Below are positions 1-47,873 of a DNA stretch of 64,000 bases, piece by piece. This stretch comes from a virus. The stretch spans positions 1 to 64,000 of IMG/VR virus record IMGVR_UViG_3300023184_000082; one strand, given 5' to 3'. Both the position numbers and the translations under genes were made by a program. How positions within the stretch are numbered: the first letter of the stretch is position 1; every line of letters begins with the position of its first letter. The notes below the pieces were generated by a model. It was not told the DNA's origin and ran no database searches. It saw only the letters and a list, made by a program, of their open reading frames with translations.

Positions 1-465
1 CATGAGTCGCGACAATGTCTCGACATTGGTGACATCGTACTGGGTGCCAACATACGGATTGATATCAGAGATGCCCTTGTTAATCAATGAAAGTTCCATA
101 GGTTTCTCTGTAGGCTTCTCTGTAGGCTTCTCTGTAGGATAACCGCGAAGTGCATCGAGCCTCTCTGGTGACAGATGTGTGGTTTTCTTACGCGGTGCGG
201 CCGGAGGCGGTGGTGCTTGCAAAGCTCTACGTTCTTCAACTAATCCTCTGAAATCCTTTTGACCAATAGGTCCCGTGTCCTTCATATTCGCCTGGATTTG
301 TCCAACCTTTTCTTCAAATGCCGAAGTATCGGCTTTCACCACTCTTGTCGTAAGCACCTTGTTCGCCCAGAGCTTATCAATAACTTGTTCCTTTGGCATG
401 CGAAGCATGGAGGCAAGATTCGTCACCAACGCATCGTCATAGTAGGACTTCTTAATTCTTTCCAT
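1..465 (-). CDS. Hypothetical protein, partial (runs off the window start): MERIKKSYYDDALV...PTEKPTEKPTEKPMELSLINKG...
   Basis: Not in the ORF track because there is no stop in the window. ATG at 465 is preceded by AGGAG on the minus strand, and manual translation shows the frame open to position 1. Confidence 0.8.
   Translation of the reverse strand, partial: MERIKKSYYDDALVTNLASMLRMPKEQVIDKLWANKVLTTRVVKADTSAFEEKVGQIQANMKDTGPIGQKDFRGLVEERRALQAPPPPAAPRKKTTHLSPERLDALRGYPTEKPTEKPTEKPMELSLINKGISDINPYVGTQYDVTNVETLSRLM
101..138 (-). repeat. In-frame 12-bp tandem repeat, about 3 copies, encoding PTEK x3
   Basis: TTCTCTGTAGG(C) repeated at 104-138 on the plus strand. Confidence 0.9.
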
Positions 466-496
466 TGCAATCTCCTATACTCAATAGTATATAGTA

Positions 497-1144
497 CTAC
501 CAGCGCTTGCGTAATGTTTGAGATTTTGCAAGGGCTTCTTCTTTTGACGAAACACCAAAGGTTTGCAATGCGCGAAGCAACCATGTAGGCTCACCACGTT
601 TGTTGCGCAATGCCCCAGGCATGACACCTAGGCGAGCCAATTCGTCGGCAAGATCCCGAGCATTTAGCGCAAGAGACGATTGCGACTCGATGGAGTAGGA
701 TTTTTCAAGATCCACAACAAGTTCTTTTGGCAACTTTTTCTTGTCAATCTTCGCGCCAGAGGAAGTGACCGCCTCAAGCTTGTCTTTCCCTGCCTGACGA
801 AGGACAACCTGATCGTCAGGGTCATCCTTCTTGATCACACGCACGACAACCTTGGTTCGAACGACAGGATGAGGCGTCTCCTCCAGCAAAGCTTCCGGAG
901 GAAGGATCGCCCCATTGGTCATGGAAGCAAACGATGCAATCTTCAAGGGTCGAAAATCGCGTCCTGCGACCGCACGACCATAAGGCTTTAATTTGTGAGA
1001 CCCTTGAGTGGCGCCTCTGGGCCCTTGATTCAATGGGCGATCAGAGCCATCGCCTATGTGAAATCCTCCAACAACAGCGTGACCAGTGCCGGATCTGGGA
1101 CGAAACATCCTCTTGGCAAAAACCAATCGTTTTTCCGTTGACAT
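497..1144 (-). CDS. Hypothetical basic protein (215 aa), possible virion-internal protein
   Basis: Long ORF with GGAGG upstream, collinear with neighbours; contains DLEKS and LAKS motifs. Confidence 0.75.
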   Translation of the reverse strand: MSTEKRLVFAKRMFRPRSGTGHAVVGGFHIGDGSDRPLNQGPRGATQGSHKLKPYGRAVAGRDFRPLKIASFASMTNGAILPPEALLEETPHPVVRTKVVVRVIKKDDPDDQVVLRQAGKDKLEAVTSSGAKIDKKKLPKELVVDLEKSYSIESQSSLALNARDLADELARLGVMPGALRNKRGEPTWLLRALQTFGVSSKEEALAKSQTLRKRW

Positions 1145-1178
1145 CGAAAACCTCCAGCAACATCATAGCAAAATGATG

Positions 1179-1737: not shown

Positions 1738-2106
1738 TTACACCTTTACGGCACTAGCTGAAAGCAACGTGGTGAGGAGACCGTCCGGAAGGTGTTCTCT
1801 CATCCAGTTTGCGTAGCTGGCATAATTTTTTTCTCTACTGGCAATTTTCTCCTGGGTTCGCTGTTCGACTTGTGCCCATTGCTCCAGTATAGCAGACAGC
1901 ATCTCGCGATTTTCCGCAAAATTTTCCGGCACTGGCGCGTATTGTTCCGTACCGTCAGCCTCCACGATGATGCGACGGTTCCTTCTTGGCACCAGTGCCA
2001 TGCCCAGTACCGACAAGCCGTAGGTATATTCTATCTCGTCCCGGATGATCATGCCATCCGGCATGACAATTTCCCACACATCAATGATTGGTTCAGACAG
2101 ATTCAT
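1738..2106 (-). CDS. Hypothetical protein (~122 aa; start MNLSEP preferred)
   Basis: Short overlap with the end of the upstream gene; protein-like composition. Confidence 0.65.
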   Translation of the reverse strand: MNLSEPIIDVWEIVMPDGMIIRDEIEYTYGLSVLGMALVPRRNRRIIVEADGTEQYAPVPENFAENREMLSAILEQWAQVEQRTQEKIASREKNYASYANWMREHLPDGLLTTLLSASAVKV

Positions 2107-3181
2107 CTTTCTCTCTCTCGTCGCCAAAATAGAATTTCAGCACTTTCAGGATGTCAGTTTTGGAAAACTTTGCCAATTTATCCAAGTCGATTGGTGCGCC
2201 ACGCTTTTGTGCCTCCTTGATCAGGTTTGCCACATGATCTGGCAACTTGGCTAACGATTGCTTTGTTGTCTTGGTAGCCTCCACGATGTCCACCGGCGCG
2301 TTCATTGCCATCAGGCTTTCGTAGGCATCATCGCGATCAGGATGATCATTGGTGATGAGATCTCGAATGAGTGGAGCTTTCATGTCGCGCAGCAAGTCTT
2401 CCGCCTCGATATGTTGCCGCGGATCGAGCATCGTGATGTCCATTGGCATGCCCATTTGTCCAAGCATGAGCAAGGCTTCTTTCTGGTCTCCACTTTCATG
2501 CTTGTCATGAACAGGTTTCTTGATGTCGTGTACATGCTCCCAGCGAATGTTCCGTGTTTTTTCATCGGAATCCTTTACGGAAATTCCATGTTTTCCCAAG
2601 GAAAGTATCTGGCACCATTGAGGACTGTCGTGATCAAATGGATGCTGGACAAAAGCGAATGATCCTTGTGCAAGGTCAGGATGAAACAACCAGTTCTCTT
2701 TTGAAACGGGAACATTCTTTTTTCCCGCCATTATGGCAAGCGAAATGGTGGGCGATGCAGAAGAACCAGCGCTTCCGGGAGACGGGATGTCTGCTTTGGG
2801 AGGACCATAATGCCGCGTGGTTTTTCCGGCAGGTCGCATTCCTGCGCCAACATGTCCGACAAACTTGTCCGAAGAAGGAAGCGCCACGGGTCTTGTTTGT
2901 GGAGCCCTCGTTGCGCCCAAGCCTTTTTCAAATCCTTCTTCCTGCTGGACATAGTTGACAAATTGAAACGCGTCCAGAAGAAAAGAAAAACTTTTTTTCA
3001 ATCCATCCAACGATCTTTGTTGCAAGGCTTGATGTTCCACAATTCCTTGCTGATCAAAAATGGTATATTCTTTATGGATACTGGAGTCATGACCGTTTTG
3101 CTGGATATCCGCAATGGATTTCCTGAGTGTATTTGCAGTTCTTGAGTATACCGAAGTCTTTTTTTCTAGGATAACACCCAT
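2093..3181 (-). CDS. Hypothetical protein (~362 aa; start MGVILEKK) with a possible SH3/KOW-like beta domain
   Basis: AAGGA SD 8 nt before ATG 3181; TGATATACT element upstream; QILSLGKHGISVKDSDEKTRNIRWEHV beta-rich segment; LRKS, LKKS and FEKG motifs in the N-terminal third. Confidence 0.75.
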   Translation of the reverse strand: MGVILEKKTSVYSRTANTLRKSIADIQQNGHDSSIHKEYTIFDQQGIVEHQALQQRSLDGLKKSFSFLLDAFQFVNYVQQEEGFEKGLGATRAPQTRPVALPSSDKFVGHVGAGMRPAGKTTRHYGPPKADIPSPGSAGSSASPTISLAIMAGKKNVPVSKENWLFHPDLAQGSFAFVQHPFDHDSPQWCQILSLGKHGISVKDSDEKTRNIRWEHVHDIKKPVHDKHESGDQKEALLMLGQMGMPMDITMLDPRQHIEAEDLLRDMKAPLIRDLITNDHPDRDDAYESLMAMNAPVDIVEATKTTKQSLAKLPDHVANLIKEAQKRGAPIDLDKLAKFSKTDILKVLKFYFGDEREKDESV

Positions 3182-3212
3182 TTGCATGATCCTTCTTGCA
3201 ATAATCAAAAAA

Positions 3213-3221
3213 AGTATATCA
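3213..3221 (-). promoter_or_regulatory. Extended -10 promoter element TGATATACT for the leftward operon
   Basis: TGnTAnnnT about 30 nt upstream of ATG 3181. Confidence 0.5.
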
Positions 3222-3236
3222 CAAGAAAGATGTCCA

Positions 3237-3629
3237 ATGAGAGTATCGTTGACAAGGCAAGACAATCCGGAAGATGATCCAGACATCGTTGTACATGGAG
3301 CAAGACCACAAAGAACAAAGGTTCCGTCTTGCGGAACATGCACTAAGCGGTTCAATTGCATAATACTCAATTATTCATTGGCATCAATGCAAGTGCTCAT
3401 GCCAATGCCCACCAAGTCAACCCAGATTATTCTGGACAAAAACGGAAGGCCCGTTGAATCACAGGAAAGTTTTTTCCCATTCCCCATGCCGTGCAGAGGT
3501 GAGGCGTACTCACCAAACACCAACGTTGATTTCGAAAACAATCCCCTTGTGCAACGTCTCGGTCTTGTAAACGTCTCCGATCCTGTCTCGTATTATGATC
3601 ACGAAAAAAAACTCAAGGAAAACGAATGA
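3237..3629 (+). CDS. Hypothetical Cys-containing protein (~130 aa; CxxC-x4-C...C)
   Basis: Part of the 3114..3629 ORF that does not overlap the divergent gene; ATGA overlap with the next gene; start uncertain. Confidence 0.55.
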   Translation: MRVSLTRQDNPEDDPDIVVHGARPQRTKVPSCGTCTKRFNCIILNYSLASMQVLMPMPTKSTQIILDKNGRPVESQESFFPFPMPCRGEAYSPNTNVDFENNPLVQRLGLVNVSDPVSYYDHEKKLKENE

Positions 3630-4100: not shown

Positions 4101-7100
4101 ATGGTTGTTGTTTTCAGAAAATCAGAAGAAGGCCCAAGCTCGCGTTCAGTTCCGCTTGGATTTTTTGGCTCAAGTACGCCAAGAAGACCAGCCGCGCCGA
4201 AAGTGGATGTGTCACCCGAGCCAGTTGCGGAACCTGCTGCGCCCCCGGAGGCGCGTCCTGAATCAAGGCACTTGCCGGTTGAATACATCGGCAATGCGCG
4301 AGGAAGGCGTCAGGCATCACGAGTGACGGGCCGAGGCATTGCACCTCCAACAAACTTGGCTATTGCGGAAGCGCTGACAAAGGTACGCGCAAAAGACGGG
4401 GGACCATTGGGTGTTTCAAGGTATACTGGATTGGCGCCTGATAGACTTCGTGTGGATGACGACGCTGATGCAATAACCGATTTGTACAAGCCAGGCGCAA
4501 ATCAACCCGTTGTTCTTGGTGCAACGCTTAATCGCGTGGCCACAGCGCCAGGCGTGTTCAATTTGAATCCCACTATGGATACCTCCATTGCTGGAATTCA
4601 ATCAGCCAATGGAGACGAGATTGCTCCAGAAATAAACGGAAATCTCGTGCGAGTGCTGCGTCATCATCTGCACGTCGAGAGCGATGGAACCACGGCGCGT
4701 CTGAAACATATTGACGCCCCTGGTGCCGCAAGAGTGGAAGCTCTTTTCCCGAGACTTGGACCGTTTGGAGTACATCAGGCAAGACAGGAAATTGAAGATT
4801 CTCGGACCGGTGCTGAAGGAGATCAATCCGGAACATCAAGAATGGTCTTGATGCCAAGTGAAAATGGTTTCAAGTTTGTGCGCGGATTACCACCTGTTGT
4901 TCCCGGAACAGACGATTTTCGGGATAATGGAATTTTGCATCCAGCGCATACGCTCGGTGTTCCATTGTTTGCTGGTGTGGCACAGGGAGCAAACAACATA
5001 TCAGGGACAAAGACCTCGGTCACTGGCAAACCACAAAGAGATGTTTATTCAACAAAGCCGTTTTTGGAAGAGGCGCAAGAAGTACTTAGCATAATCAAAG
5101 CCAAAACAATTGAATTAGAAAAACCAACAACAACAGCAAGCGAAAGAGAACGACTTCAAGCGGAAATTACCAAATTGCATTCGGCAAGACAATTGATGCT
5201 AAACCCTGACGTTGCGGCTGGTTTTCGAGATGCCTTGTTTGCTGGAAGCAATCAACTTGGAAGAAGGTACATCGGATTGGCTCCAGGAGTATTTGGTGGG
5301 CCATCGTCTCCTCAGGAATGGAACAGTGCGGAAGAGCGCAAGGCAGCATACGCAACTATCGAATCCTCGCGCTCCATGTTATCACGAGGCATGCACAATG
5401 GATTGTTCCCATTTCTTCATGAAGATGGAATGAAGAGGATATTTGCAAAGCAGTCGGTCGATATTGATGGAAAACCAGCAGTCAACAGCGAGTTCTTCGA
5501 TGTTGTTGGAACAAGGGCAACATTAGAGGTTCCTGTCTTGCCAAACACTTCACACGCTCCTGATGCAATGAAAACACACATTGTAAATGCCTCGCGTCTT
5601 TTTGCTCCTATCAGGGCGACCATGGATGATTCGGTATTATTTCTTAACCCAAATGACGAGCAGAAAGGCGAATACAAACCGGCTTATGTAGTCATGACAA
5701 TAAATTCAAGGTCTACATCCGGAAAAACAACGAGTCTTAGAATTCTGGACGATCCAAGATTGCGATATAGGGCATCAACATTGGCGTCAGGATTGCAAAG
5801 TTTTTCTCATTGGGGGGTTGCCCTTACGGATCAAGGCGCGGGACACAGTCGCGCAATAACCTATTGGAGTCAAAAATTAGCAGAAACAACGCGGAAACTT
5901 ATTCTTCAAAAAGGAACTTCTGCGCAATACGACGTTTTTGCTGATCCTGAAATCATAGAAATCAACAAGAAATTAAATGCTGCCAAAGCAGCGCAAATAA
6001 AAACGGATACCGAAGTTGCCAGACGCAAAGACGGAAAGAGACCAAGGGGATTCAAGGAATCAATTGGCACCAAGGAAAATCCAATACAATTGCCAATGGC
6101 AGGATATGGAGGATTATCCTCAACACCGGTTCCCATTTTGGATCCCAAAACGGAAATTTCCGGACAATTGTATGCGTTTAATCCCCTTGTTCCCGGTCAA
6201 TCAATCAGCGCTATTTCAATGCATCCATCTTCAGTTGACAACGTTACTGGATTGACTGAATCGCCATGGTACAGATTGCAAACAGACCGCAAATTAACCC
6301 CCTCAAAAGATTCGGAAAAATTGTCTCAAGAAGTTTTATCGCAAGAATCCTTGGCACAATCCGGACTTCGCGCTCTGGTGATCAGTCAAGGAGTGGATGG
6401 TTACGCAATGGTCTTGAAATCACCAGACGGACATGTGATACAAGCACATGGATTTCAATGGAGCCCTGCGGTTCTTGCAGTTCATCCACCAATATTCCGC
6501 GACAAGTCGGGCACAACACTTCCAAGTGGATCATTGTTTGGTGCTGCAATTTCAAACACGGTGGAAACATTCAACAGGTCAGTAGAAGAATATGGTCATA
6601 TTCGCAGAATTCAATCACAAATAATTTATGATGACGACGATAAGGAAACTGAACAGGCAGACATCTTGGGCAAGGCAATTGAAAAAAGAGAAGATCCATT
6701 TGCCTTATACAGGGAAACTCCCTTATGGAGCCCTGTGTTTGACAAAAATGGGGATCCAATCCCTGGTCAATTTGAGCAATCGCCCAACCACAATTCACTG
6801 ACAATGTCGGATCCGGGACATTACGCGCTTGACGATTTTGGCGTATGGAGATTTTTTTCGGGCATAAGCAGTGATACTGCAATGGAATATGGAATTCATA
6901 ATTTTCCTACAAAAATGATGAGGGGCGGAGTAAATCATGATGCATTCTATCCTCACGACGTTGGGGGCAAATCCCGATGGAACAGAAAAACAACAAGGAC
7001 GACCGGTGTCGATGAATCATGGCCAGACAGGGGTGGTGATTCTGGTTGGGCGGTGCCGGGACAACGGTTTTCTTACGACAGGTTCAATGGCACTCCTGAA

Positions 7101-10100
7101 CGATATGTGCTGACAGGAGATGCTGTTCGTCAGTATCAAATTGCCAATCCTGAAAGAAGGGCCCTGTCCGACAGGATTTCACGGGAAATATATGATTTGC
7201 AAATGCAGCGTCATTCAATGGCTTCCGGACGATATACAGTTATTGCACAAAGAGAACGCACAAAATCAACACGCAAGTTGGGCAAATACAGCGAAGACAC
7301 AAAAAAAGATTGGGAAACAGTTGCAACAAAATGGGCAACGACAACATTTATGGAAAACATTCCTACGATCAGCAGCGCGGAAAACGATCCAAACAGAAAT
7401 AGCATGCCGGTAGCGGAATTTCTCGCGGAGGGAATAAAAACATTTCTTTGCCAAGATCAGCAGTTTATTCATCATTTTTCCCAAAATATTGAAAAACCAG
7501 AAATACAAGAAGCAATAGCTTCGGTTCTCTGTCAAAAATTTGGTGTAGCCTCATTGGAAGATCTTGATGCTCAAACCAAGGAATTGATCAATACAACAAT
7601 GAAGGAAGCAACAAGTAACGCAACAACAATCAGGGAAAAAGAAGAAAAAGACAAGGATAATGAAATTGAAGATTTGGTTATTACTGACTTGCATGGTCAG
7701 GATATTGTTACTGGATCATATCGGTTATTTTCGAGACCCGCAAAAGGTGCGGTCCATATGCCGTGTGCACTCATGGATAACGACGACAAAGAAACAATAT
7801 TGTTTTTCCCAAGAGATCCAGAAGACAAGAATAATCTTTTCTTGGGAATGCGAGCAGGCAATCGCATTGAATGGGTAGATGGAAAAAAGGTAATTTCAAA
7901 CGCAATTCCAGAAAACAGGGGCGATCACAACTCGCCAATTTTCATAAAATCAGTTTCAGTTACTCCCAATGGATCATATTGCACACTTTCAAAATCCCAA
8001 GAAATGTTTTCGGACGAATTAAAAGCGCACATTGAACAGTATAATCCCACAAAAACAAAAACAGACGGCTCGCTTTTAGTTCGCATTTCACAAGATGAAC
8101 TTGTTCCAATTTTGCCTTCGCAAATCCGTCCGTACGACGGATTTATCGAGCAGCATGGAGAAGAGCTTCCATCGAGCTTATTCACAAACATGTTGCTTTC
8201 GAAAAAACAAAGAGAATCAGCAGAAAAAGAAAATAACAATGAAACTATAAGAGAAGAAATTATTCGCTATCTTAACAATGTGGCAACAAAAAGAGATCCG
8301 CTGCAAGCAAGTGGCGTTGACGCAAATGGAAATATCATTCCAAATGAGCGTTCCGGATTCTTGAGAAAAATAGGAATAGATATTGGCGTAGAAGATTCTC
8401 ACTATATGTTTGCAAGCATGAATCCGGATGATTACACATGGATAAAGGAATCAATTCCTGAAACCATTGATTTGCAGGATCCAATGTATTACTTGGCATC
8501 AAGAATAACGCCGAATACTACTGGAAGTTTCAATGCAATCAGGAAATCTCGACAAAGCGCGGATCAGCAGGATTACAACATACAGCTTTGGTCCTTGAAT
8601 AACATGCAAAAAGTTGCTCGCGCCCTTGTTGTGAAACGAGCAGATGCAATTAACGGAAAATATGATGTCAAATCACTTGTGGTTCCATCAAAATATACCG
8701 ATGATGAAGATCAAGAGATTACTCTGGAAGCTGATGATGATTACAAAAAAATCATGCAAGAAGATGATGATATTCCCATTGAACACTTGAAAGATCCCAA
8801 TCAGGCAATGCAAACGCTTATCTTGGCGTTGGAAATGGATGCATTCAGGTCAATAACTCCTCATGGAAAAGGCGGCTATGACGAAAAGGGAAATGCCGAT
8901 TCAGATGGCGAGTACGATGAGCATGGCAATCATATCCTTGAGTTCATTGAAATTCCAAAAGAAATTACTGACATTTCACAAAATTCAGCAATGAAACAAT
9001 TCAAAGATGCATACGGATATGCAATTAGTGATCAATACATAAAGTTGATAGGCATGAATGGATTGCTTTCCGAACTATTGAATTCAAGAAATGAAGAAAC
9101 CTTATCAGATTTGAAATCCGTGCATCCAGAAATCGGAGCAATGTTTGAGAAAGCTCTTAATATTTCAGACAGATATGCAAAAACAAATGACAAGGAAGAA
9201 AAATCCAGACTTAGGACAGAAGGTTTGGAAATTAGTCAAGATATTGTCTATGCGCAAATGTCCGATGTGTTCAAGCGAATAAAAGGATATAGCGCTCTTT
9301 CTCCATTGCAAAAACTGGCTTTTGTCGAGCTTGACAACGTCGGAATTGTGGGAAATTTCAACAAGCTTCGCATGGGTGTGCCAAAATCATCGTATCAACT
9401 TGACGGAACTGACGTTTCAGACGAGCAATGTCAAGAGGCAGCGCTGGTGATTCATGGATTGGCTTCAAGTTCTGTTGCGGGAAACCACATGGCTAACAAC
9501 AAGGGATTGTATCGATCAGACGGAACTCAAAAAATAGAAATTATGCAACATCAAATCAACCCCGACGCTTTTCAAGCGGTATTCATCAAAGGCAAACTGA
9601 CACATGTTCGCGCATTGGATTACCCAGAAATAGACCCAAAGATAAGAGATCTTGCAAAATTGTCTGAACAAGTGGCATTTAAGGGAAATCCTTCCGAGGC
9701 AAAACTTGATGAAATGATAAAAATCATTGCAGATTATCCAGAATGTCAAGCAGAATTGATCAAGGCAAAAAATACATTCATGGACAGAGGAGAATTATCA
9801 AGGACAGATAGATTAAAGATCATACAAACAGTAGGTGTCAGACTTGGTCTTTCTCCCGAAGACTTGCCATACGGAATGCTCAAGAACATAAAAGATAACA
9901 TCACAACTGCGATGGCGTTGACTGTTGCATCCCAAGCGCAAATGCATGCCATGTGGACACACCGCAAACAAGAAGATCAATTGACTGCAGGTCAAGAAAA
10001 ACCAATCAAAAGACCAGGCTTGGGAGTTACGTTGAATGCGTTGCCTCTTGGATTAAGCGGAGAACATCAAGCGCTTGCCGATCACGGTCATTCCGATGGT

Positions 10101-16709: not shown

Positions 16710-16736
16710 TGCAGCATGCGGCTCAATCAATCGGCA

Positions 16737-16745
16737 TGCTATACT
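16737..16745 (+). promoter_or_regulatory. Extended -10 element TGCTATACT
   Basis: Directly upstream of AAGGAG SD and ATG 16761. Confidence 0.5.
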
Positions 16746-16760
16746 TTCCACAAGGAGAAC

Positions 16761-17048: not shown

Positions 17049-17066
17049 AAATCCAAGGATTATGCA

Positions 17067-39035: not shown

Positions 39036-39656
39036 ATGTCAGTGCTTGAAGGACACATAAAGAGGTTGCGAATCAAGACAGGAGGTCCTGATAAACTAGC
39101 AGTGGATCGGGCAGCAACATCTGGAGGGCATCGATCAAAGAAATCCTATCAGGCCGTCATGGCGCCAAAGACTTCATCGCCAAGAACAAGCATTGAAGAA
39201 AGACAGCGAAGGCTTGAGAAGTCCGTACAGAAGCAGGACGCCAAGGGCATCGGGCGGATCATGGAGCATATTGCCGATGTGATTGGGTCATCCTTTGAGT
39301 CTCCCTTGATGATGCCAATGACTGGAGAGGGCAATCCTGATTGGGATGCTCCCGACAAGGACAGCTTTGTCATGATGCCGATCAACAACAAGAAGTCCAG
39401 TCTTCATGGACGATTTGTCATCTTGCAGAAGCTTCCAAATGGCATGTACAAGATTGCCGAGAAACCCACCAAGGAAAAGAAAAAGAAGAGCGATGATGAT
39501 GATGACGGTGACGTGAACAAGGCTGGCATCACAGGCGCACGAAAAGTCAGGAGCGACACGGGCGCCACGCATCATTGGTCACCAAAGGGTGCTTCCATCC
39601 GCGGAGCAAGATCTGCCGGTCGGTCACCAAAGGGATCCAAGAGTGGTGCGCTCTGA
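39036..39656 (+). CDS. Basic hypothetical protein (206 aa) with an RKVRSDTG motif in a basic tail
   Basis: AAGGAG SD; TATAAT boxes upstream; LEKS and VNKA motifs. Confidence 0.8.
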   Translation: MSVLEGHIKRLRIKTGGPDKLAVDRAATSGGHRSKKSYQAVMAPKTSSPRTSIEERQRRLEKSVQKQDAKGIGRIMEHIADVIGSSFESPLMMPMTGEGNPDWDAPDKDSFVMMPINNKKSSLHGRFVILQKLPNGMYKIAEKPTKEKKKKSDDDDDGDVNKAGITGARKVRSDTGATHHWSPKGASIRGARSAGRSPKGSKSGAL

Positions 39657-40249
39657 TGCGTACATCGCGAAAGGTGGGGGTACGGAACGCTCCCGCGTTA
39701 ACGCCATCGGGGTTGCGGAGCAGCAAGCAGTCCGATCAGGGACGCAATGCAGGAAAATCGTACGGACAACCTACTGCATTGCAATCTGAAAAATCTCCCG
39801 CGTTGCAAAAAGCGACAAACATCGAGAATCAATTTCGATATGCATTGCTGAGAAAGGGTTTGAACTTCATCGAACAAGCCAACATTGGTCCTTGGTCATG
39901 CGATTTTTTTCTCCCTGAACACAAGCTGGTGATTGAAGCGGACGGGGAATACTGGCACTCGATTCCAAAAACGATGATGAAGGACAGGCGCAAGGATCTT
40001 TGGTTGCGATCACATGGCTATTCGGTCTTGCATTTTGAAGGCAAGAAGATATCTTCTGATCCAGATGGCTGTATCACCAAAGTGATACAATTGATAGAAA
40101 ATAATAAACTTTCCCTTTCTCTTGAGGTAGAAGAGGAGGAATTTTCAGAAGAGCCGGAAATAGCCATAGCAAAGGAACACGACGACGATGCAGAATACGA
40201 AGCTTGGCTCTCTTCCGGATCCATCGGACCAGGAGGAAGCGCTGGTTAA
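39656..40249 (+). CDS. DUF559/Vsr-like PD-(D/E)xK-fold endonuclease (~197 aa)
   Basis: TGATG overlap start; TNIE...FIEQ...CDFFLPEHKLVIEADGEYWH...DRRKDLWLRSHGYSVLHF. Confidence 0.88.
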   Translation: MRTSRKVGVRNAPALTPSGLRSSKQSDQGRNAGKSYGQPTALQSEKSPALQKATNIENQFRYALLRKGLNFIEQANIGPWSCDFFLPEHKLVIEADGEYWHSIPKTMMKDRRKDLWLRSHGYSVLHFEGKKISSDPDGCITKVIQLIENNKLSLSLEVEEEEFSEEPEIAIAKEHDDDAEYEAWLSSGSIGPGGSAG

Positions 40250-40490
40250 GAGGCTGAAGAAAAGTCTGCGTATTCCCCACATTTCCCACTCAGGCAATGC
40301 CGTTTGCACAAACCCAGCTTGCAGGGCAAGAATGATCAAATCAAATGCAGTCCTTGAGGCAAATTCAATCTCACATCGCGCAGTCATGATTACTGGAAAA
40401 ACAAAGATTTTCTTGATCGGCAAATCCATCATTGCCGAGTGTGTATGCGGAACAAGATACGACCTTGACGGTGCGTTAAGCGAGGAATGA
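40242..40490 (+). CDS. Small Zn-ribbon-like protein (~82 aa; CxxxxC...CxC), start uncertain (CTG 40242 or 40188)
   Basis: Fills the gap between the nuclease and the neck gene; AGGAGG 5 nt before an in-frame CTG; LKKS, MIKS and IGKS motifs. Confidence 0.6.
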   Translation: MVKRLKKSLRIPHISHSGNAVCTNPACRARMIKSNAVLEANSISHRAVMITGKTKIFLIGKSIIAECVCGTRYDLDGALSEE

Positions 40491-40491: not shown

Positions 40492-41952
40492 ATGCCAGTC
40501 ACTGAAATGACCGTTGCAACAGACAAGACAGAATATTCAAGATACAATTTCAATACCCGGACCATTACGATTACCGGAATGGTGATTGCTGGACAGATTG
40601 CCGTAGGGGATTCCTTCGTCTTTTCCGTCAGGAGAACGCTTTCGGAAAACTGGCCGGAGGAACACTCCGCGCTGATGACCAAGACGGTTGTGGCCAATCA
40701 GGGTCATGTGACGGCACAGATGATCACGTGCCAGCTTGTTGTCGGATCAGACGACCTTGATGCGGATTTCATCGGACGGGCACTGCATTCCCAGTATCGG
40801 GTGAGGATTGCCCATGGGGCATCATACTGGCAATGCACATCGCTGATTTCCATTGCCATCATTACCACGAAGGAGATGCGGGATGAGTGGTGCTATGGAG
40901 CGCCATTGAAAGCCATGGAAGTGCTTGGCGTAAAATTCCAGCCGAGAAACATCACCGGATTCTCCATTGACGAAGTTTCAAACGGCGTGGTTCCTGGAGT
41001 GAAGGTTTTTACGCTGAACTACATCGCGCCCGTTGCTCCAGCCACCACCCATCAGTGGACGTTGCAATGGGATGGGGGAACCCCGATTTCGATCAGTTCT
41101 CCCATCAGGCAGCAGTACCTGCTCCTTGATGAGACCAATATCAACTACATGCTTGTGGATATCAATCCTGCATACCTTCCTCGCGCAAAAGTGGTGGAAT
41201 CCCTGCTTGTCTCGGAATTGGCCATGACAGACGAGATGATCCAGAGGAGGATCTCCTTTGCCATAGGATCAGCGGAGTCGCTGCTTGGCTTCCCGATGGA
41301 GCCGTACCTGATAACCACATTGCCTCGTCATCCCGGACAGCAACAGGAGTTGCAGCACCAAGTGGATCATTGGGATCGGATCGGCAGACCGGCAGACTTC
41401 ATCGCTCCGGTTGACCTCATGATGTGGCCGACATTCAGGCTCCCCCAGCAATGGTGTCTCAAGCTGCATGAAATTTATGGGTACCATTCCACCAACAAGA
41501 TCGTGAAGGTGACGGAAGACTGGTTTGCCACCACGGTTGACCGGATGAGCGGACTGGTCTCCCTTGTTCCTTCATTGGGAAGTTTCGCGCAGTGGCAGGT
41601 TTACACGTATCCGCTGATATCTCCTTTTTACATGCGCCATAATATTCCTTCCTTCTGGCAGTACACAGGAATCTTCGGATTGCCTGACCTTGCCAATGAT
41701 GGACGCGCCCCAGTGCGTGAGCTCATTGGCCGCATGGGTGCGACTTCCATCCTGATGGAAGCAGGGCGCGGGTACCAGGGTGGACTTTCAGGCGAATCGA
41801 CTTCGCGTGACGGCATATCCAGCAGCCGGTCGTTCAATCCCGGCGGCCCCTATGCATCAACGATCCAAGCGCACCAGCAATGGATACAGGCTGAGGCACC
41901 GCGCCTGAAGAGCAAGCTCGGAGGCGTCCTCATCCAGATGATCGGGGCCTAG
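40492..41952 (+). CDS. Putative neck/head-tail adaptor protein with N-terminal extension (486 aa)
   Basis: GAGGA SD; C-half (MTDEMIQRRI...AESLLG...S-x-S-x-DGISSSRS) resembles SPO1/Twort-type adaptors; adjacent to the Cys-motif neck gene. Confidence 0.6.
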   Translation: MPVTEMTVATDKTEYSRYNFNTRTITITGMVIAGQIAVGDSFVFSVRRTLSENWPEEHSALMTKTVVANQGHVTAQMITCQLVVGSDDLDADFIGRALHSQYRVRIAHGASYWQCTSLISIAIITTKEMRDEWCYGAPLKAMEVLGVKFQPRNITGFSIDEVSNGVVPGVKVFTLNYIAPVAPATTHQWTLQWDGGTPISISSPIRQQYLLLDETNINYMLVDINPAYLPRAKVVESLLVSELAMTDEMIQRRISFAIGSAESLLGFPMEPYLITTLPRHPGQQQELQHQVDHWDRIGRPADFIAPVDLMMWPTFRLPQQWCLKLHEIYGYHSTNKIVKVTEDWFATTVDRMSGLVSLVPSLGSFAQWQVYTYPLISPFYMRHNIPSFWQYTGIFGLPDLANDGRAPVRELIGRMGATSILMEAGRGYQGGLSGESTSRDGISSSRSFNPGGPYASTIQAHQQWIQAEAPRLKSKLGGVLIQMIGA

Positions 41953-41953
41953 C

Positions 41954-42631
41954 ATGCCAATTGATATCCAGCAACATGTTCGCTTTATCCTTCGGCATGG
42001 TGATCGTGTCGTGCATTACAAGGGTGTGCTTTGTTCATGTTCTTCAACGGGAAGGCCGGAAGAAGCAGACCTGACGTGCCGGAAATGCAGCGGCCTTGGC
42101 GTATTCTGGATTGATCCCATCACCATTGTCGCGCTCATTCACGGACTTGATTCGGATCGGTCAGGCAGGATGTGGCTGCAAACCGGCATTGCGCTTCCCG
42201 AAGACATGTCCTGTTCCCCATTGCCAAATGCGCCGAGAAGATTCAAGGATTATGACAAGGTCATTCCAACATGGCAGAGAGGGTTTCCGTACCCTGGGGA
42301 ATTGCTTATTCGCGGCCAAAAGGATACGCTCATCTACAGGCCTGTCGGAAAGATCCTGCGTGTCTCGCAAGTCAATCCTGTCAGTGGCAAGGAAACGCTA
42401 TGGGAAGAAGGTGAAGACTTCGAATTGCTTGGTGATGACAAAAAGAAGGTCGGATGGAAGGAAAACAAGGGTCCAGCGGCAAGCACGACCTACGCGGTTC
42501 AGTATGAGCCTCGATTCGAATTTGTCGCGTGGAACCCCCCGGCTCCCAGATGGGAGCGTGGGCGCGATCTTGGGTTGCGGGTGTTGCTGCGAAAGATCCA
42601 TCTCCCGTGGCCGGTGACCAACTGGGGGTAA
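41954..42631 (+). CDS. Putative neck/head-closure protein (225 aa) with CxC...CxxCxGxG
   Basis: HGDRVVHYKGVLCSC...CRKCSGLG, the pattern of SPO1/Twort-type neck proteins. Confidence 0.65.
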   Translation: MPIDIQQHVRFILRHGDRVVHYKGVLCSCSSTGRPEEADLTCRKCSGLGVFWIDPITIVALIHGLDSDRSGRMWLQTGIALPEDMSCSPLPNAPRRFKDYDKVIPTWQRGFPYPGELLIRGQKDTLIYRPVGKILRVSQVNPVSGKETLWEEGEDFELLGDDKKKVGWKENKGPAASTTYAVQYEPRFEFVAWNPPAPRWERGRDLGLRVLLRKIHLPWPVTNWG

Positions 42632-42632
42632 C

Positions 42633-42661
42633 TTGTATCCCGGCTGCATTCATGGTATATT
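42633..42661 (+). promoter_or_regulatory. Sigma70-type promoter TTGTAT-N17-TATATT with extended TG
   Basis: Exact 17-nt spacer; followed by AGGAGG and ATG 42680. Confidence 0.7.
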
Positions 42662-42679
42662 CGCGTCAGGAGGACCGCA

Positions 42680-43279
42680 ATGGTCGCAAACAGAGGCGCA
42701 TCGCAACCGTATCGCTCACAATCAGGCGGGAGGGACTCTGGCCCTTCCTACGATCAAGTCCTGCAGGAAGTCCGCAATGCAGGGATGATCTCCACAACCA
42801 CCTCCGTTGACGTGGCACCAAATGCAGGGAATGAATATCTCTGCATTGTCCGCGCCGAATGCACGATGCCCCCACTCCGCGAAGGCGATCAACCCCGTGT
42901 TTACTCCGGCCTTGGTGCGGCATATCCGCGCAAGAATGGACAGAATGTTGTCCATGGGGTTAGCAATCCTGCGTTCTACATGCACATTGCAGAAAGCCGC
43001 GCGAAGAAACGGGCGTGGATGGATGCAGTAGGACGTGGCGATGGCCTTGAGGAGAACATCCGTGAGGATGTCATGATGGAACGCGCTCACACTTCTGCTG
43101 CCCGAGACGCAGCCGCACTGCCTCCGCCCCCATGGCAGATGTCTGACGAAGCGGCGCATCGCCTCGTTTCGCTTAGCACCTACACATTTGAAGAGGCGAA
43201 AGCCATGACCAAGGAAGAGGCAAAAGCAGCCGTGCAAGCCATCAATGCACAAATGGCTTCAGCCGAAAATCAAAATTGA
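42680..43279 (+). CDS. Putative Rad52/Sak-like single-strand annealing protein (199 aa)
   Basis: IVRAEC...VYSGLGAA...HIAESRAKKRAWMDAVG matches the beta-beta-alpha AExRAxxRA core of Rad52-like phage SSAPs. Confidence 0.6.
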   Translation: MVANRGASQPYRSQSGGRDSGPSYDQVLQEVRNAGMISTTTSVDVAPNAGNEYLCIVRAECTMPPLREGDQPRVYSGLGAAYPRKNGQNVVHGVSNPAFYMHIAESRAKKRAWMDAVGRGDGLEENIREDVMMERAHTSAARDAAALPPPPWQMSDEAAHRLVSLSTYTFEEAKAMTKEEAKAAVQAINAQMASAENQN

Positions 43280-43350
43280 TAAGCCCCGGTCACTACATGA
43301 ATAGGGTATGATTAGTAGTGTAAAGAATTAGGGTCAACGCATTTACGCGA

Positions 43351-43414
43351 AGGGGCCGCCATTTACGCATTCTGGCTTGATATATGCAAGCCATTCTGCG
43401 CAATGGCGGCCCCT
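43351..43414 (+). terminator. Long interrupted hairpin (terminator or processing/stabilising structure)
   Basis: AGGGGCCGCCATT/AATGGCGGCCCCT 13 bp + CGCA/TGCG + TGGCTTG/CAAGCCA; followed by ATTAATTTT. Confidence 0.65.
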
Positions 43415-43439
43415 ATTAATTTTGGGATAGAATTGATAT

Positions 43440-44423
43440 ATGAATCAAACAGATACCATTAGACAACATCGCAAAAGCCTAGCGGAAATGGACGGAGTAA
43501 GTGCAACCTTTGAGGTTCCTCTCACGTATATCAAATCGTTTGTCGGAAACTACACGACATCGATGGGTGATATCAAGAAGGGAAGAATCATCGAAGGCAT
43601 TGCGTCTACCGAAGACATGGATCAGCAAGGCGAAATCGTTGTGCAAGACAAGATGGATTGTTCATACCTGCTTGAAAAAGGATATCTGAACTGGAATCAT
43701 TCCCACTCCCCTGAAGACCAGATCGGCAAGCCGCTTGAAGTGATCAAGCTTGCCGGAGGACCATCGACACCAAAGGGACTGCCGTGTACATTCTTCCGCG
43801 CCTTGTTATTTGAAAGCATGCCTCGCGCAGAAGCCGTCTGGACATTGAGCAAGGCGCTTGAGGAATCCGCAGGGGTTGGGGAGGATCGACATCTGGGGTT
43901 TTCGGTAGAAGGTGGCGTTCGAGTCCGGCACAACAATATCCTGATGGAGACCATGGTCAGGCACATGGCCGCTACGCATGAACCGGTAAATGCACAAGCT
44001 GTGGCACGATGCGTCCTTGCGAAAAGCCAGGGATTCAAGGTAGATGATTCAGTACTCATCGATACCCTTGATGACAATGTTCCGCATTTTATCTTCAAGA
44101 GTTTTTCGCAGCTTTCAAAATCACTGCTGTTCTCGAAGAACATGATGGTTGATGCAGCACCTGAGGCATCAATGAATCTTGGAGGCGCCAAGCCGCTCTT
44201 GACAGAAAACCTTTCTGGGGGGCGGCGCAAAAACAAGTCCCGGAAATCCTTTGCAGATACGCTGTATAGCGAATGCATCCACGGAAATACGTGTAAATCC
44301 GGAGATACATTCAAGAAGGGATATCAAGGAGCACTTGATCATCTGGTGTATTGCGGAGGGATGAATCCTGTGGATGCGGCAAATGCACTCTTGTCGCATA
44401 TCCGTATGTTAAAATCCAATTAG
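43440..44423 (+). CDS. Prohead (maturation) protease
   Basis: IEGIASTEDMDQQGEIV, GYLNWNH, IGKP, LGFSVEG, HEPVN (HK97/herpes-like fold His/Ser motifs); upstream of the scaffold and capsid genes. Confidence 0.9.
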   Translation: MNQTDTIRQHRKSLAEMDGVSATFEVPLTYIKSFVGNYTTSMGDIKKGRIIEGIASTEDMDQQGEIVVQDKMDCSYLLEKGYLNWNHSHSPEDQIGKPLEVIKLAGGPSTPKGLPCTFFRALLFESMPRAEAVWTLSKALEESAGVGEDRHLGFSVEGGVRVRHNNILMETMVRHMAATHEPVNAQAVARCVLAKSQGFKVDDSVLIDTLDDNVPHFIFKSFSQLSKSLLFSKNMMVDAAPEASMNLGGAKPLLTENLSGGRRKNKSRKSFADTLYSECIHGNTCKSGDTFKKGYQGALDHLVYCGGMNPVDAANALLSHIRMLKSN

Positions 44424-44442
44424 AATCTTTAAGGAGGAAATA

Positions 44443-45954
44443 ATGGTTAGTGAAATGCAGTTAGCCAGAAGACAGCTCGACAAGGAGCTTAATCGGCATA
44501 ACATCCCAGATGCGCTGCAAGTCCTTGACCGTGCTGTTGGCGGGTTGATCGACCTTGCCAAGAGCCGTGTCGGCGATGGTGTGACAAATGCCAAGGAAGT
44601 CAAGAACCCCTTTGGTGATCCGCCCGGTATTCCGGGAGCGGGGAAGGCTGATGGGAACTACCGCTTGCCGAAGTTCGCTGGCGTCTACACCAATACCCAG
44701 AGTGTGCCGAAGAAGAAGGTGAAGGCCAAGTCCGAGTCTTCGACTGCGCTGCCGACCGCAGCCGGAAGCATGCGCCTTGGCAAGGCGCAGTTCGGCGGCC
44801 AGGAAGAAGACGGATACGGCGACGGCGATGATCAGGACGATGGTCAGGGCAATGGTCCGGACGATGGTCCGGACGATGATCAGGACATGAGGCGCCAGCG
44901 CTACAAGGCCATGCGAAGGAACGAAGAGCCTGAAGAAGAAGAAGAATACGAAGACGATGATAATGATCAGGATGACGATGAGGAAGAAGGCAATCCCGAC
45001 GATCCTGATGACGATGGGGACGAATACGGCGATGATGACGATGACGGGGACGGAGGAAATCCCGACGACCCTGATGACGACAACGACCCTGATGCTGATC
45101 AGGATCCGAACGATCCCGAAAACGGCGAGTCGGACAGAAGAGCAGCCTTGGAAGCCTTGCTTTCCCGCAACAGCAAGTACGACAAGGGACCGGGCATGCG
45201 GCCTCGTCAGCCAGTAGCCCCGCCAGCCCCACCGCAGGGTGGAGCTCCGGGCATGCCTCCGGGAGCAGGACCAATGGCAGGAGGAGGTGCGCCTATGGCT
45301 CAGAGTTTCCAGCGTAGCCGCAAGGCCAAGCTTGGCGATATTCACAAGGCTCTGGTTTCTGGCCCTGATGGGGCACAGGTTGCAGAAGTTGTGGAAGCCA
45401 GCAAGGAACTTGCACAGATGGTGAATGTTTTCGGACGATTCCTCGCGGACATCTCGACACAGGTCGAGTCGGTTCGTCAGGAGCAGTATGAGAGCACCGC
45501 CATGCTGGCCAATGCGGTCAGCACAGTCGTGAAGAGTCAGGCGGCCATGGCCCTTGGTCTTGAGCGAATTGCCAAGTCGGCAACGGCATTGGCGCAGAAC
45601 AGTGCCCCGATGCAGAAGTCTTTCCGTGAGGAACCTGCTTCTCGCCCGAATCCGGGAGTGCTGATGAATGGGAAGGTTCTGTCCGAAGGAGCGCAGCTCC
45701 GTCGTTCGAACACCACCGTTCTTGATGACTCGGGATACGCGATGGTGTCCGGTGCCCAGATCGAAGGGCGTCTGACAAAGTCCTTGGTTGGAACGGTTAT
45801 CCAACAGTCGGTACTGGACGGGGAATACTCCCCGAAGGAAGCGCTCCGTTGGCTGACTGAAACCGATAGCCCGACAACGGGTCCGGTTGGAGTGTTCCAG
45901 CAGCTTCCCCCGAAGCTGCGTGATCGCATCATCGCGAAGACACAAGAAGTCTAA
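44443..45954 (+). CDS. Probable scaffolding protein (503 aa) with a long Asp/Glu-rich tract
   Basis: Between protease and capsid; AAGGAGG SD; acidic tract ~44800-45130; many hydrophobic-x-K-[SA] motifs. Confidence 0.7.
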   Translation: MVSEMQLARRQLDKELNRHNIPDALQVLDRAVGGLIDLAKSRVGDGVTNAKEVKNPFGDPPGIPGAGKADGNYRLPKFAGVYTNTQSVPKKKVKAKSESSTALPTAAGSMRLGKAQFGGQEEDGYGDGDDQDDGQGNGPDDGPDDDQDMRRQRYKAMRRNEEPEEEEEYEDDDNDQDDDEEEGNPDDPDDDGDEYGDDDDDGDGGNPDDPDDDNDPDADQDPNDPENGESDRRAALEALLSRNSKYDKGPGMRPRQPVAPPAPPQGGAPGMPPGAGPMAGGGAPMAQSFQRSRKAKLGDIHKALVSGPDGAQVAEVVEASKELAQMVNVFGRFLADISTQVESVRQEQYESTAMLANAVSTVVKSQAAMALGLERIAKSATALAQNSAPMQKSFREEPASRPNPGVLMNGKVLSEGAQLRRSNTTVLDDSGYAMVSGAQIEGRLTKSLVGTVIQQSVLDGEYSPKEALRWLTETDSPTTGPVGVFQQLPPKLRDRIIAKTQEV

Positions 45955-45977
45955 GAAAGAAAGAAGGAGGATCGAAA

Positions 45978-47873
45978 ATGGCACTTTTAACGGAATTCCC
46001 TTCGGGGTATCACAAGTCAGAGCCACTTAACAAGTCGTTTGACATGATTGTTCGCGACTGGAGTCGGCAGCAGTTCGGAGGCGACGACATCGTCGACGAG
46101 ATTCGCAAGGCACTCAGCACAGGCGTTGCCTCGCAGATCGCCGCTGGTGGCGCGGTCACCGCTGGCAACAACAATCCGGGTGAGACCACTGCGTTGCGTC
46201 TTGAGAACCTCGACAACACCATGACGAGCGTTCTTGCGACTGCGGAGCATCTCAAGATTTTCCGCTGGCTTCACAAGGAGCCTAGCAAGCAGCCGTTCTA
46301 TCAGTGGAACCGTCGCGAGTCGTATGGCTCGACAAGAGGGTTCTTCGGATTTCAGGAAGGCGGGTCACCCACCGGCGGCAAGGGCAATTGGTCGAGAAAC
46401 GGCGCGTACGTCAAGTTCCTCGGAACGAAGGGCGGGGTAACCCATCCTGCGGTGCTGACGAATATCCTCGGTGGCATGTCGGTTGACCCGGTTGCCGAAG
46501 ATCAGCTTGGCCGTACCATGGACTTCATGCAGCGCATCGAAAGAGCCGTCATGTATGGTGACGAGGATATCTGGGACAACACTAACCAAGATGCCAACTA
46601 CGACGGAATCCTGAAGCAGCTCACAATGGCCCGTGCGAAGAACATCATTGACCTTGAAGGCAAGCCGCTCACGCTCGACGTGATCGCGAATGTCGCGTCG
46701 CGACTGGTCAGTGAGGGCAAGCTTCTTTCCTTCAATGACATCTCGCTCTTCATGAGTCCCCAGAACATCGAGGACTTCGGCAAGCTGCGGTACTCGACCA
46801 TTCTCGGCGCTGGCAACGATGTGGGTGGCGTAGGGTCGCGCGTGGACCGTGCTGACCTGACCACCTCGGCTCGTAACAACCTCATCGCCGGTCTGTCCAT
46901 CGTTGGGCAGGCGACATCGTTCGGGGTCATTCCTTTCGAGTGGTCGATTTTCACTGAGCCAGTCGAAGGTGGCGAGCCACTGTCGGTCGCCGACCCCGGA
47001 GCACCCGAAGCTCCATCAAACACCGCGTATATATACGCAACCCATTCGGCGTCTGACACGCCGCTTGCTACCGCGAACGTGACAACATCAACTAACTCCG
47101 CGACCTCTGGTGCTATTGTGTCCGTGTCCAAGCGATACAAGGGCGTAACAACTGCGGGGTCTTCCTCCTACTATTACAGGAGATCCGGGCCACCTGGATT
47201 GGCACTTGCAATCGCGGCTCGGGATGGCTCGGGTACTACAATTCCGTCCGGACCAGGGATTACGGCGCCCTCTACTCAAAACGTAGGGAGTACGCTTATA
47301 GATGAGTCCGTCGTTGTTCATAACATCACGCTGGCTGTAAGTGCGAGCAAGCACGATGCTGTTTCCAGTACTTCGCTTGGAACGCAGTTCTACTGGTATC
47401 GGGTAGCTTCAGTCAATGATATCGGCGAATCCGCTGCTAGCTACGTATCGACGGGTGCGGTCAGCCCTGACAACACCGTGGTCGTGAAGTTGCTCATCCC
47501 TCATGCCGCCAATGCTCGTGCATACCGAATCTATCGGTGCACAACATATCAGGACACGTCTGTACCCGCCCTCAATGCTGCCACATGGCAGTTTGTCGGA
47601 TATGTTGCTGATACCGGTGCTGACTGGCACGAGTTCACGGACTCGAACGGAGCTGCTGCTGACTACACCAACTTCCGACCGGGCACCAACATTGCCCCAT
47701 TGCTTTGCCGCAACAGTGCTGACCTGTGCATCGCGCAGATGTCGCCGCTGCTCAAGATGCCGCTTGCTCCGACAAGCACAACCTTTGAGTATCTGCTGCT
47801 TCTGTACCATACGCTGGTTCTCAAGGCACCGGAGCGTCAGTTCATCTTCAAGAATGTCGGCAAGCTGAACTAA
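45978..47873 (+). CDS. Major capsid protein precursor (631 aa), SPO1/Twort-like
   Basis: AAGGAGG SD; EIRKALSTG, TALRLENLD, IERAVMYGD, YDGILK, NIIDLEGKPL, C-terminal QMSPLLKMPLA...LVLKAP; strongly biased codon usage. Confidence 0.92.
   Translation: MALLTEFPSGYHKSEPLNKSFDMIVRDWSRQQFGGDDIVDEIRKALSTGVASQIAAGGAVTAGNNNPGETTALRLENLDNTMTSVLATAEHLKIFRWLHKEPSKQPFYQWNRRESYGSTRGFFGFQEGGSPTGGKGNWSRNGAYVKFLGTKGGVTHPAVLTNILGGMSVDPVAEDQLGRTMDFMQRIERAVMYGDEDIWDNTNQDANYDGILKQLTMARAKNIIDLEGKPLTLDVIANVASRLVSEGKLLSFNDISLFMSPQNIEDFGKLRYSTILGAGNDVGGVGSRVDRADLTTSARNNLIAGLSIVGQATSFGVIPFEWSIFTEPVEGGEPLSVADPGAPEAPSNTAYIYATHSASDTPLATANVTTSTNSATSGAIVSVSKRYKGVTTAGSSSYYYRRSGPPGLALAIAARDGSGTTIPSGPGITAPSTQNVGSTLIDESVVVHNITLAVSASKHDAVSSTSLGTQFYWYRVASVNDIGESAASYVSTGAVSPDNTVVVKLLIPHAANARAYRIYRCTTYQDTSVPALNAATWQFVGYVADTGADWHEFTDSNGAAADYTNFRPGTNIAPLLCRNSADLCIAQMSPLLKMPLAPTSTTFEYLLLLYHTLVLKAPERQFIFKNVGKLN

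Follow-up and report, generated by a model that had tools for sequence, protein, structure and literature searches.

This locus raises the question of whether very large proteins encoded beside the head genes of a virus are loaded into its capsid and leave it together with the DNA. The window, i.e., the whole stretch of 64,000 nucleotides analysed here (positions 1 to 64,000 of the IMG/VR record IMGVR_UViG_3300023184_000082), is the first 64 kb of one 79,891-bp virus contig and encodes a prohead protease, a scaffold-like protein and a major capsid protein (MCP), preceded by four giant proteins of 1,280 to 4,272 residues. The original prediction, made from the letters of the sequence, had noticed a short motif, a hydrophobic residue-x-K-[S/A/G], in both the head proteins and the giants and had proposed that it serves as a capsid address and maturation signal. 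Our analysis shows that the motif is strongly enriched in the head proteins and sits at the termini of the giants, as had been claimed, where it is conserved, whereas its supposed density inside the giants does not exceed chance. In the reading that we prefer, to which we give a probability of about 0.5, giants tagged with a terminal protease site would be trimmed in the prohead and would leave with the DNA. Judging from its genes, the source is an uncultured myovirus of roughly 180 kb whose head genes are distantly related to those of Herelleviridae. Thirteen relatives of the contig were found in IMG/VR; one of them, G002, spans 184 kb and is rated 97% complete, so that the 79,891-bp contig would represent about 45% of a ~180-kb genome.

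The three head genes are organized sequentially, as follows (h, hydrophobic residue; the bar marks the predicted cut):

43440-44423, plus strand: prohead (head maturation) protease, 327 aa (phrog_1028, E 4e-32)
44443-45954, plus strand: scaffold-like protein, 503 aa, with seven h-x-K|[SA] sites, assigned by its place between protease and MCP and by motif enrichment
45978-47873, plus strand: MCP, 631 aa (phrog_752, E 4e-40)

Enrichment was assessed by comparing observed motif counts with those in within-protein shuffles. The prohead protease contains five [LIVM]xK[SA] and three xK|G sites, 8 in total against 1.5 expected (z 5.6), and the scaffold 7 against 1.4 (z 4.8), in agreement with the original description of both as motif-dense; for [LIVM].K[SA], the head core as a whole has 15 sites against 2.4 expected (z 8). 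In the protease, LAK|S (aa 193-196) ends the catalytic domain and MLK|S lies two residues short of the C-terminus. Protease, scaffold and MCP are enriched in the motif here and in every relative examined (11-13). The proteases of 11 relatives keep 3-6 sites each, with about 0.8 expected, and the relatives' scaffolds carry 7-11 sites, with about 1 expected, non-alignable N-terminal halves included; the scaffold family totals 85 motif sites, compared with 0-23 for control motifs. Tail proteins are depleted in the motif (15 sites vs 26.7 expected). When about 160 proteins of at least 80 aa in G002 were scanned blindly, protein by protein, only seven were flagged, and these are almost only head-module proteins: the scaffold, the protease, the MCP, the gene after the portal, the homologue of an 82-aa gene described below, a 154-aa leftward gene and a 1529-aa protein that bears a leader discussed below. 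Gene g486 (40492-41952), a head-module neighbour with no sign of being a substrate, shows a single motif site in seven orthologues. This gene was also considered as a candidate portal and rejected, as it resembles neither the A511 portal nor any PDB chain; its AF2 model reached a pLDDT of 49. As a separate observation, K-[SA] dipeptides as such are depleted in the tail genes (contig 50123-79886), with 42 observed and 71 expected (z -3.7).

The MCP carries two sites, LNK|S (aa 17-20, nt 46026-46037) and IRK|A (aa 42-45, nt 46101-46112). Its N-terminal 45 residues are nearly invariant in 12 relatives, with the IRK|A site invariant in 11 of the 12, and residues 1-44 are likely a propeptide. The original prediction had invoked the K|S cleavage of the Listeria phage A511 capsid protein, Cps, as a precedent; indeed, in RefSeq the mature peptide of A511 Cps begins at residue 24, after EDALK (K23|S24). 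In the MCP alignment, DEIRK|ALSTG here corresponds to NISK|AFVAGTG of Lactobacillus phage Iacchus and to ALK|SFTTGYG of A511 Cps, i.e., the A511 cut falls on IRK|A, which supports the assignment of the motif as an SPO1/Twort-type (Herelleviridae-like) protease site. In line with this, the MCP is ~28% identical to Herelleviridae MCPs and the protease ~30% identical to annotated Herelleviridae prohead proteases, the cut after Lys and before Ser or Ala lies at the aligned position, and the gene order protease-scaffold-MCP is shared. With the protease as query, tblastn matched 758 phage records over aa 8-211 at ~30% identity, the majority from myoviruses of Staphylococcus, Bacillus, Listeria and Enterococcus; a Pfam search with the same protein matched no model. 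We regard it as very probable that [LIVM]-x-K|[SA] is the cleavage motif of the prohead protease, which would cut after Lys, take ~44 residues off the MCP at IRK|A, chop the scaffold at ~7 sites and trim itself.

The Herelleviridae differ in three respects. The propeptide comprises 44 aa here and 23 aa in A511. The A511 scaffold, gp85, and the A511 protease show no significant motif enrichment, whereas scaffold and protease here are heavily enriched; heavy multi-site use is therefore a trait of the clade studied here and not of the whole protease family. Finally, terminal tags on giant enzymes are not known in Herelleviridae. Side observations on the head genes are also worth recording. In the A511 protease (L050 3443-4237), the chain continues after FMK|S (aa 168-171) with WTTGHGTTPDTQVNAGALRRE, a near copy of the mature capsid N-terminus SFTTGYGITPDTQTDAGALRRE. 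A 521-aa open frame runs antisense to the scaffold gene (44461-46026, minus strand) and is also present in the closest relative; most likely it arises incidentally from the composition of that gene. By megablast, the head genes had no match among phages. Bacteroides phage DAC19 gave the best cultured MCP match by E-value; it was dropped as a useful model, as it has no giant genes near its MCP.

Upstream of the head genes, four giant proteins are encoded:

4101-16709, plus strand: 4202-aa protein with a UvrD/PcrA-type helicase at aa 3130-3900 (Pfam PF00580, PF13361)
17067-29885, plus strand: 4272-aa protein with DprA/SLOG (aa 1579-1775) and NADAR (aa 2036-2165) domains and a GTPase-like stretch (aa 2269-2395) (Pfam, PHROG)
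30548-34498, plus strand: 1316-aa protein with a weak HD phosphohydrolase match (PF01966, 22.2 bits)
35174-39016, plus strand: 1280-aa protein without a family match (no Pfam, PHROG or ESM Atlas match)

Pfam thus recovers the domains that had been called by eye, namely the UvrD helicase, DprA/SLOG, NADAR, the weak HD and, in a smaller neighbour, a Vsr/DUF559 nuclease. Besides its helicase, the 4202-aa protein contains about 3100 aa without a match, and neither a MuF domain, a peptidase nor any other extra domain was found in the giants with Pfam and PHROG at E <= 1, much of their sequence having no family match. The C-terminal 227 aa of the 1316-aa protein, for which an ART/PARP-like fold had been claimed, gave an AF2 model with a pLDDT of only 40.

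Every peptide quoted in the original prediction is present at its place, and those at the extreme termini of the giants prove to be conserved in orthologues. The 4202-aa protein begins with the leader MVVVFRK|S (nt 4101-4124), which reads MVIVFRKS in a 69%-identical orthologue, MIIVFKKS in one of 36% and MLIFKKS in one of 25%, the 2566-aa UvrD protein of G002, although the ~60 residues that follow are only 13-20% identical in the two distant orthologues and 39% in the 69% orthologue. The 1316-aa protein begins with MMQQALMK|S (nt 30548-30574), and h-x-K-S occurs at residues 4-9 in five of six orthologues (LMKS, MMKS, LFKS, IVKS). The 4272-aa protein lacks an N-terminal tag; rather, its basic C-terminal tail (nt 29745-29885) contains LRK|S, LHK|S and VRK|A. 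The first of these, L-[RQ]-K-S (aa 4227 here), is placed ~45 residues from the C-terminus and followed by a basic tail in 5/5 orthologues, of which the 32%-identical one has I-A-K-S at this position. The 1280-aa protein has two tandem sites, MNK|A-LRK|S (aa 90-97, nt 35441-35464) and IYK|S-FRK|S (aa 570-577, nt 36881-36904), and has 4 of 6 sites in common with a 31%-identical orthologue, compared with 0-1 for ten control motifs; its LLK|S, six residues before the C-terminus, is not conserved. In short, sites at giant termini are conserved across orthologues of 25-47% identity, whereas interior sites and ten control motifs are not.

Counting supports the same picture. The 60-aa terminal windows of the giants, the comparison proposed with the original prediction, contain 6 motif sites against 1.65 expected (p = 0.009), a density of 1.25 per 100 aa at the termini versus 0.39 in the interiors; the same windows of tail proteins contain 3 against 4.4 expected. 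A test with 14-aa terminal windows and local shuffles, covering 238 proteins of three related genomes, found 14 N-terminal sites against 7.4 expected (p = 0.008) and 15 C-terminal sites against 6.6 expected (p = 0.002).

The leader of the 4202-aa protein also appears to be portable. In the form M-h-h-(h)-F-[RK]-K-S, it is found on the 4202-aa protein and on six G002 proteins that are mutually dissimilar by BLAST: MLIFKKS (2566 aa, UvrD), MLFFKKS (226 aa), MVYLLFKKS (844 aa, NADAR domain), MTFFKMLVLKKS (705 aa), MPWFDKS..FRKS (1529 aa) and MISFRKS (649 aa); the 1316-aa family bears a looser h-x-K-S leader. In G002, leader carriers make up 6 of the 30 proteins of at least 600 aa and 3 of the 129 smaller ones. 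In the three genomes, local shuffling predicts 1.0 N-terminal 14-aa windows with h-[RK]-K-[SA], and 10 are observed; F-[RK]-K-S is present at 5 N-termini against 0.07 expected, both patterns being post hoc. The DNA 5' of the leaders is unrelated, and their Ser codons are of both the TCN and the AGY type; selection therefore acts on the leader peptide, and an origin at the DNA level, such as a common promoter or ribosome-binding element, is ruled out.

Two further N-terminal features were observed. The G002 proteins at 149224, 163777 and 165043 have a different common N-terminal peptide, M(K/R)..(T/N)PFPF, with h-x-K-A some residues later in two of the three (FRKA, LQKA). Between the two largest giants here, a 110-aa gene (16716-17048) reads MMAITKKN from an internal Met, followed by an acidic run, and resembles the 226-aa G002 protein at the same position (MLFFKKS plus DDDYDDDED), with Asn replacing Ser.

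Several smaller genes are candidate substrates as well:

39036-39656, plus strand: 206-aa protein with a variable N-terminal part ending in LEK|S (nt 39213-39224), then a conserved PMPM..DWDAP core
39656-40249, plus strand: Vsr/DUF559-type endonuclease, 197 aa (PF04480, E 3e-12), with LQK|A (nt 39803-39814) just before the nuclease core
40242-40490, plus strand: small zinc-ribbon-like protein, 82-100 aa, with three sites, LKK|S, MIK|S and IGK|S
2093-3361, minus strand: leftward 422-aa protein with a variable N-terminal half containing LRK|S and LKK|S, then a conserved C-terminal domain
1-465, minus strand: leftward gene truncated at the contig end, with MERIKK|S as its start and 3 sites vs 0.6 expected

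Together, the small upstream and leftward genes contain 11 [LIVFM].KS sites against 4.0 expected (z 3.7). In the 206-aa family, h-x-K|S stands at or next to the position just before the core in six genomes whose N-termini are otherwise unalignable, and the family as a whole has 22 sites, with no control motif exceeding 10. The zinc-ribbon-like protein has 3 sites against 0.5 expected, and all three are kept at 60% identity. Two motif columns of the 422-aa family are common to at least three of four genomes, all controls giving 0; by eye there is a third column, in which FEK|G here, fitting only the wider S/A/G pattern, stands opposite LEKS, MEKA and LKKA. No orthologue was found for the leftward gene at 1-465. 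For the endonuclease, Q/A-K-A precedes the core in seven orthologues and a hydrophobic P3 is present in only two, making it a weak candidate substrate.

These observations suggest a scheme in three steps, the first being the processing of the head core described above. In the second, for which we judge the odds somewhat better than even, the same protease would process the 206-aa, 82-aa, leftward 422-aa and 1280-aa proteins, from which we propose that these proteins are located inside the prohead. In the third, which by analogy with known systems we rate at close to an even chance, three giants would be packaged and would bear short terminal propeptides removed in the prohead: the 4202-aa and 1316-aa proteins a leader of 7-8 residues ending in the cut site, M-h-h-h-F-[RK]-K|S, and the 4272-aa protein a basic tail, made up of the ~45 C-terminal residues that follow L-R-K|S. 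If the propeptides are removed in the prohead, the giants would be loaded before DNA packaging and exit with the DNA. By the same analogy, a terminal peptide ending in a prohead-protease site would mark its bearer as present in the prohead at the time of protease action and as leaving later with the DNA. The predicted substrate peptides are MVVVFRKSEEGP, MVVVFRKSEEGPSS, MMQQALMKSAIEIP and MCP residues 36-52, with predicted cuts after K7, K8 and K44. In trypsin-based mass spectrometry, a K|S cut is indistinguishable from a tryptic cut. A more tentative proposal, which we would sooner doubt than assert, is that the 7-8-residue M-h-h-h-F-[RK]-K|S peptide is a portable capsid-loading and cleavage signal for proteins of up to about 4,200 residues, with a C-terminal variant for the 4272-aa protein; the Herelleviridae-type prohead protease and core of one clade of ~180-kb environmental myoviruses would recognize it, and its cargo would include the UvrD helicase giant, the HD protein and the NADAR protein. 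Such cargo would exceed N4 vRNAP and P1 DarB in size and would thus comprise the largest injected phage proteins known.

The alternative that survives best, which we nevertheless hold to be unlikely, is that the motif is a protease site for the head core only, and that the terminal peptides of the giants serve partner binding, membrane or nucleoid targeting or stability, the giants being ordinary late or early enzymes of the cytoplasm that are never packaged. A number of findings weigh against packaging, most of them also speaking for this alternative. As wholes, the four giants contain 47 motif sites against 42.7 expected (z 0.8), so the claim that they are dense in the motif fails; their interior motif is at background, neither used nor avoided, whereas neighbouring head-module proteins that give no sign of being substrates, such as g486, are nearly motif-free. 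The 4272-aa protein, which bears most of the "counter-defence" domains, lacks an N-terminal leader. The G002 homologue of a tail-lysin-like protein (79500-81449, minus strand) bears the same leader, which counts against packaging because a tail protein should not meet the prohead protease. The sister clade (G003-G005) has no terminal enrichment, though its scaffold and protease are equally motif-rich. Lysine is generally frequent at N-termini, where the control h-x-K-[TN] also shows a mild excess (p = 0.019), and some of the signal is therefore due to this lysine richness. The [RK]-K-S refinement is post hoc, and at 7-8 aa the leader falls short of every documented capsid-targeting sequence. 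In addition, both cleavage and virion content are predictions from sequence, in a clade without a cultured relative. Against a role confined to the head core, however, the leader ends in precisely the four-residue motif in which scaffold and protease are enriched, the 1529-aa G002 protein that bears the leader shows motif enrichment of its own, and the giants lie on the same strand as, and tightly packed with, the head genes. Moreover, a helicase, DprA or NADAR protein made late would be most useful if carried to the next cell, an argument made for phage proteins of this kind (PMC5512222). Regarding the tail-lysin homologue itself, it has a weak CHAP match, a window counterpart at 59370-62372 and a 13-aa N-terminal extension, MISFRKSPTEEVS.

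That the terminal motifs of the giants are chance matches of a short, loose motif in lysine-rich sequence is a much poorer explanation, and we consider it very improbable. By chance, the motif should turn up about once in 250-300 residues, the cases were first picked by eye, and the N-terminal control just mentioned is enriched too; yet the position is kept in four members of the 4202-aa family and in 5/6 and 5/5 orthologues of the other two giants while the flanks diverge, the terminal-window tests give p = 0.002-0.009, and the post hoc F-[RK]-K-S count lies far above its expectation. Poorest of all is the idea that the giants are polyproteins cut by the prohead protease at many internal h-x-K|S/A joints into separate enzymes: it can point to 14 internal [LIVFM]xK[SA] sites per giant (17-19 with Gly at P1') and to the two conserved internal tandem sites of the 1280-aa protein, but these numbers are what shuffling predicts (17 vs 14.7 and 19 vs 18.3), in alignments with orthologues 25-33% identical the 4202-aa protein shares no interior site to within ±6 columns, the 4272-aa protein shares only one with its distant orthologues within ±6 columns, and ten control tetrapeptide motifs show the same lack of interior conservation, which therefore argues that the giants are not polyproteins cut at domain joints and leaves this idea scarcely credible.

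Packaging of tagged giants, the reading that we prefer, has parallels in known systems. In T4, a capsid-targeting sequence of ~10 aa directs internal proteins and Alt into the head, where they are cleaved by gp21 and from which they are injected (PMC9958956). Both systems would have a short N-terminal leader that ends at the phage's own prohead-protease site and stands on non-structural, mutually unrelated proteins, and the cargo would in each case consist of enzymes that act on the next host. The two share no sequence similarity, however, and T4 cuts after Glu whereas the cut here would be after Lys; the leader here is shorter (7-8 aa) and the cargo 5 to 50 times larger.

The giants also resemble the polyvalent proteins of phages and conjugative elements (Iyer, Burroughs, Anand, de Souza and Aravind 2017), of which the phage ones encoded beside late genes are predicted to be packaged, with release proposed to occur by built-in peptidases or MuF/portal fusions (PMC5512222). 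They are likewise huge, multi-domain and fast evolving, lie beside late or packaging genes and combine DNA-processing with NAD/ADP-ribose-related domains. With its DprA/SLOG and NADAR domains and its GTPase-like stretch, the 4272-aa protein falls within the polyvalent definition of at least two conflict-related domains in a very large polypeptide in a late or packaging context. In the main text of that work, DprA is mentioned once and NADAR never (PMC5512222). The difference is that the link to the head here is not a MuF or peptidase domain but a terminal tag matching the prohead protease.

In SPN3US, a phage of the phiKZ type, gp245 removes N-terminal propeptides of 20-254 aa at an A-X-E motif, and the protease has a C-terminal propeptide (PMC10052503), while P1 DarB, of about 2000 aa, is packaged and co-ejected (PMC12810830). 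The likeness lies in large non-structural proteins with N-terminal propeptides that are packaged with the DNA, in long propeptides cut at multiple sites and in the C-terminal propeptide of the protease. Protease specificity and protein families are different, and the phiKZ/SPN3US and P1 Dar systems have been proven by mass spectrometry and genetics, whereas the system here, in the comparison with T4 as well, is predicted from sequence.

From position 3114 to 42631, the plus-strand genes follow each other with gaps of at most 19 nt or short overlaps, leading into the head genes. The plus-strand order is two small genes, the 4202-aa protein (UvrD helicase), the 110-aa gene, the 4272-aa protein (DprA/SLOG, NADAR, GTPase-like), a 215-aa gene, the 1316-aa protein (weak HD), a 220-aa gene, the 1280-aa protein (no match), the 206-aa gene, the Vsr/DUF559 nuclease, the 82-100-aa zinc-ribbon-like gene and three conserved head-module genes; then come the prohead protease, the scaffold-like protein, the MCP, the sheath, two tube paralogues, the tape measure and tail genes. 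A scan for sigma-70 promoters and terminators scored at or below shuffle level. An identical 4202-aa protein is also present on a 110-kb contig, and further orthologues have 4192 aa and 4016 aa. A related-locus search found no locus with the 1280-aa protein as single query, and with the 1316-aa protein only the known closest relative.

Composition and divergence separate the giants from the head genes. G+C is 0.43-0.46 in the giant genes here (4101-34498) and 0.54-0.55 in the adjacent head genes (40492-47873); the corresponding values are 0.34-0.38 and 0.49 in G002 and 0.46-0.49 and 0.56 in G001, i.e., the giants lie 7-13 points below the neighbouring head genes. Where head proteins retain 60-90% identity, the giants retain 25-33%. 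The G002 stretch at 13798-19831, which lies ~75 kb away from the capsid gene, encodes the large terminase, the portal and an 870-aa protein enriched in the motif. Residues 595-640 of this 870-aa protein resemble 46 residues close to the C-terminus of the leftward 215-aa gene product of the window (497-1144). ORFs at the two ends of the G002 contig (127-348 and 183420-183806) are 86% identical, a hint of a long terminal repeat of the kind seen in SPO1-like phages.

The original proposal that about 40 kb of the window encodes head-internal cargo delivered with the DNA would stand by analogy only, while the protease-site motif, the A511 precedent, the terminal sites of the giants and the domains recovered by Pfam are supported. 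The general idea of injected phage proteins is already known (T4, phiKZ/SPN3US, P1 Dar, Iyer 2017); what is new is that very large proteins bear a specific tag ending in K|S and that this tag is conserved, and the K|S specificity of Herelleviridae-type proteases would extend beyond the capsid protein. The polyvalent giants of phages have been widely predicted, and almost never shown, to be injected counter-defence proteins. If the reading is true, an 8-residue tag matching the phage's own maturation protease would be a concrete handle on whether such giants are packaged. The tag would also let cargo proteins be predicted from sequence in related metagenomic phages.

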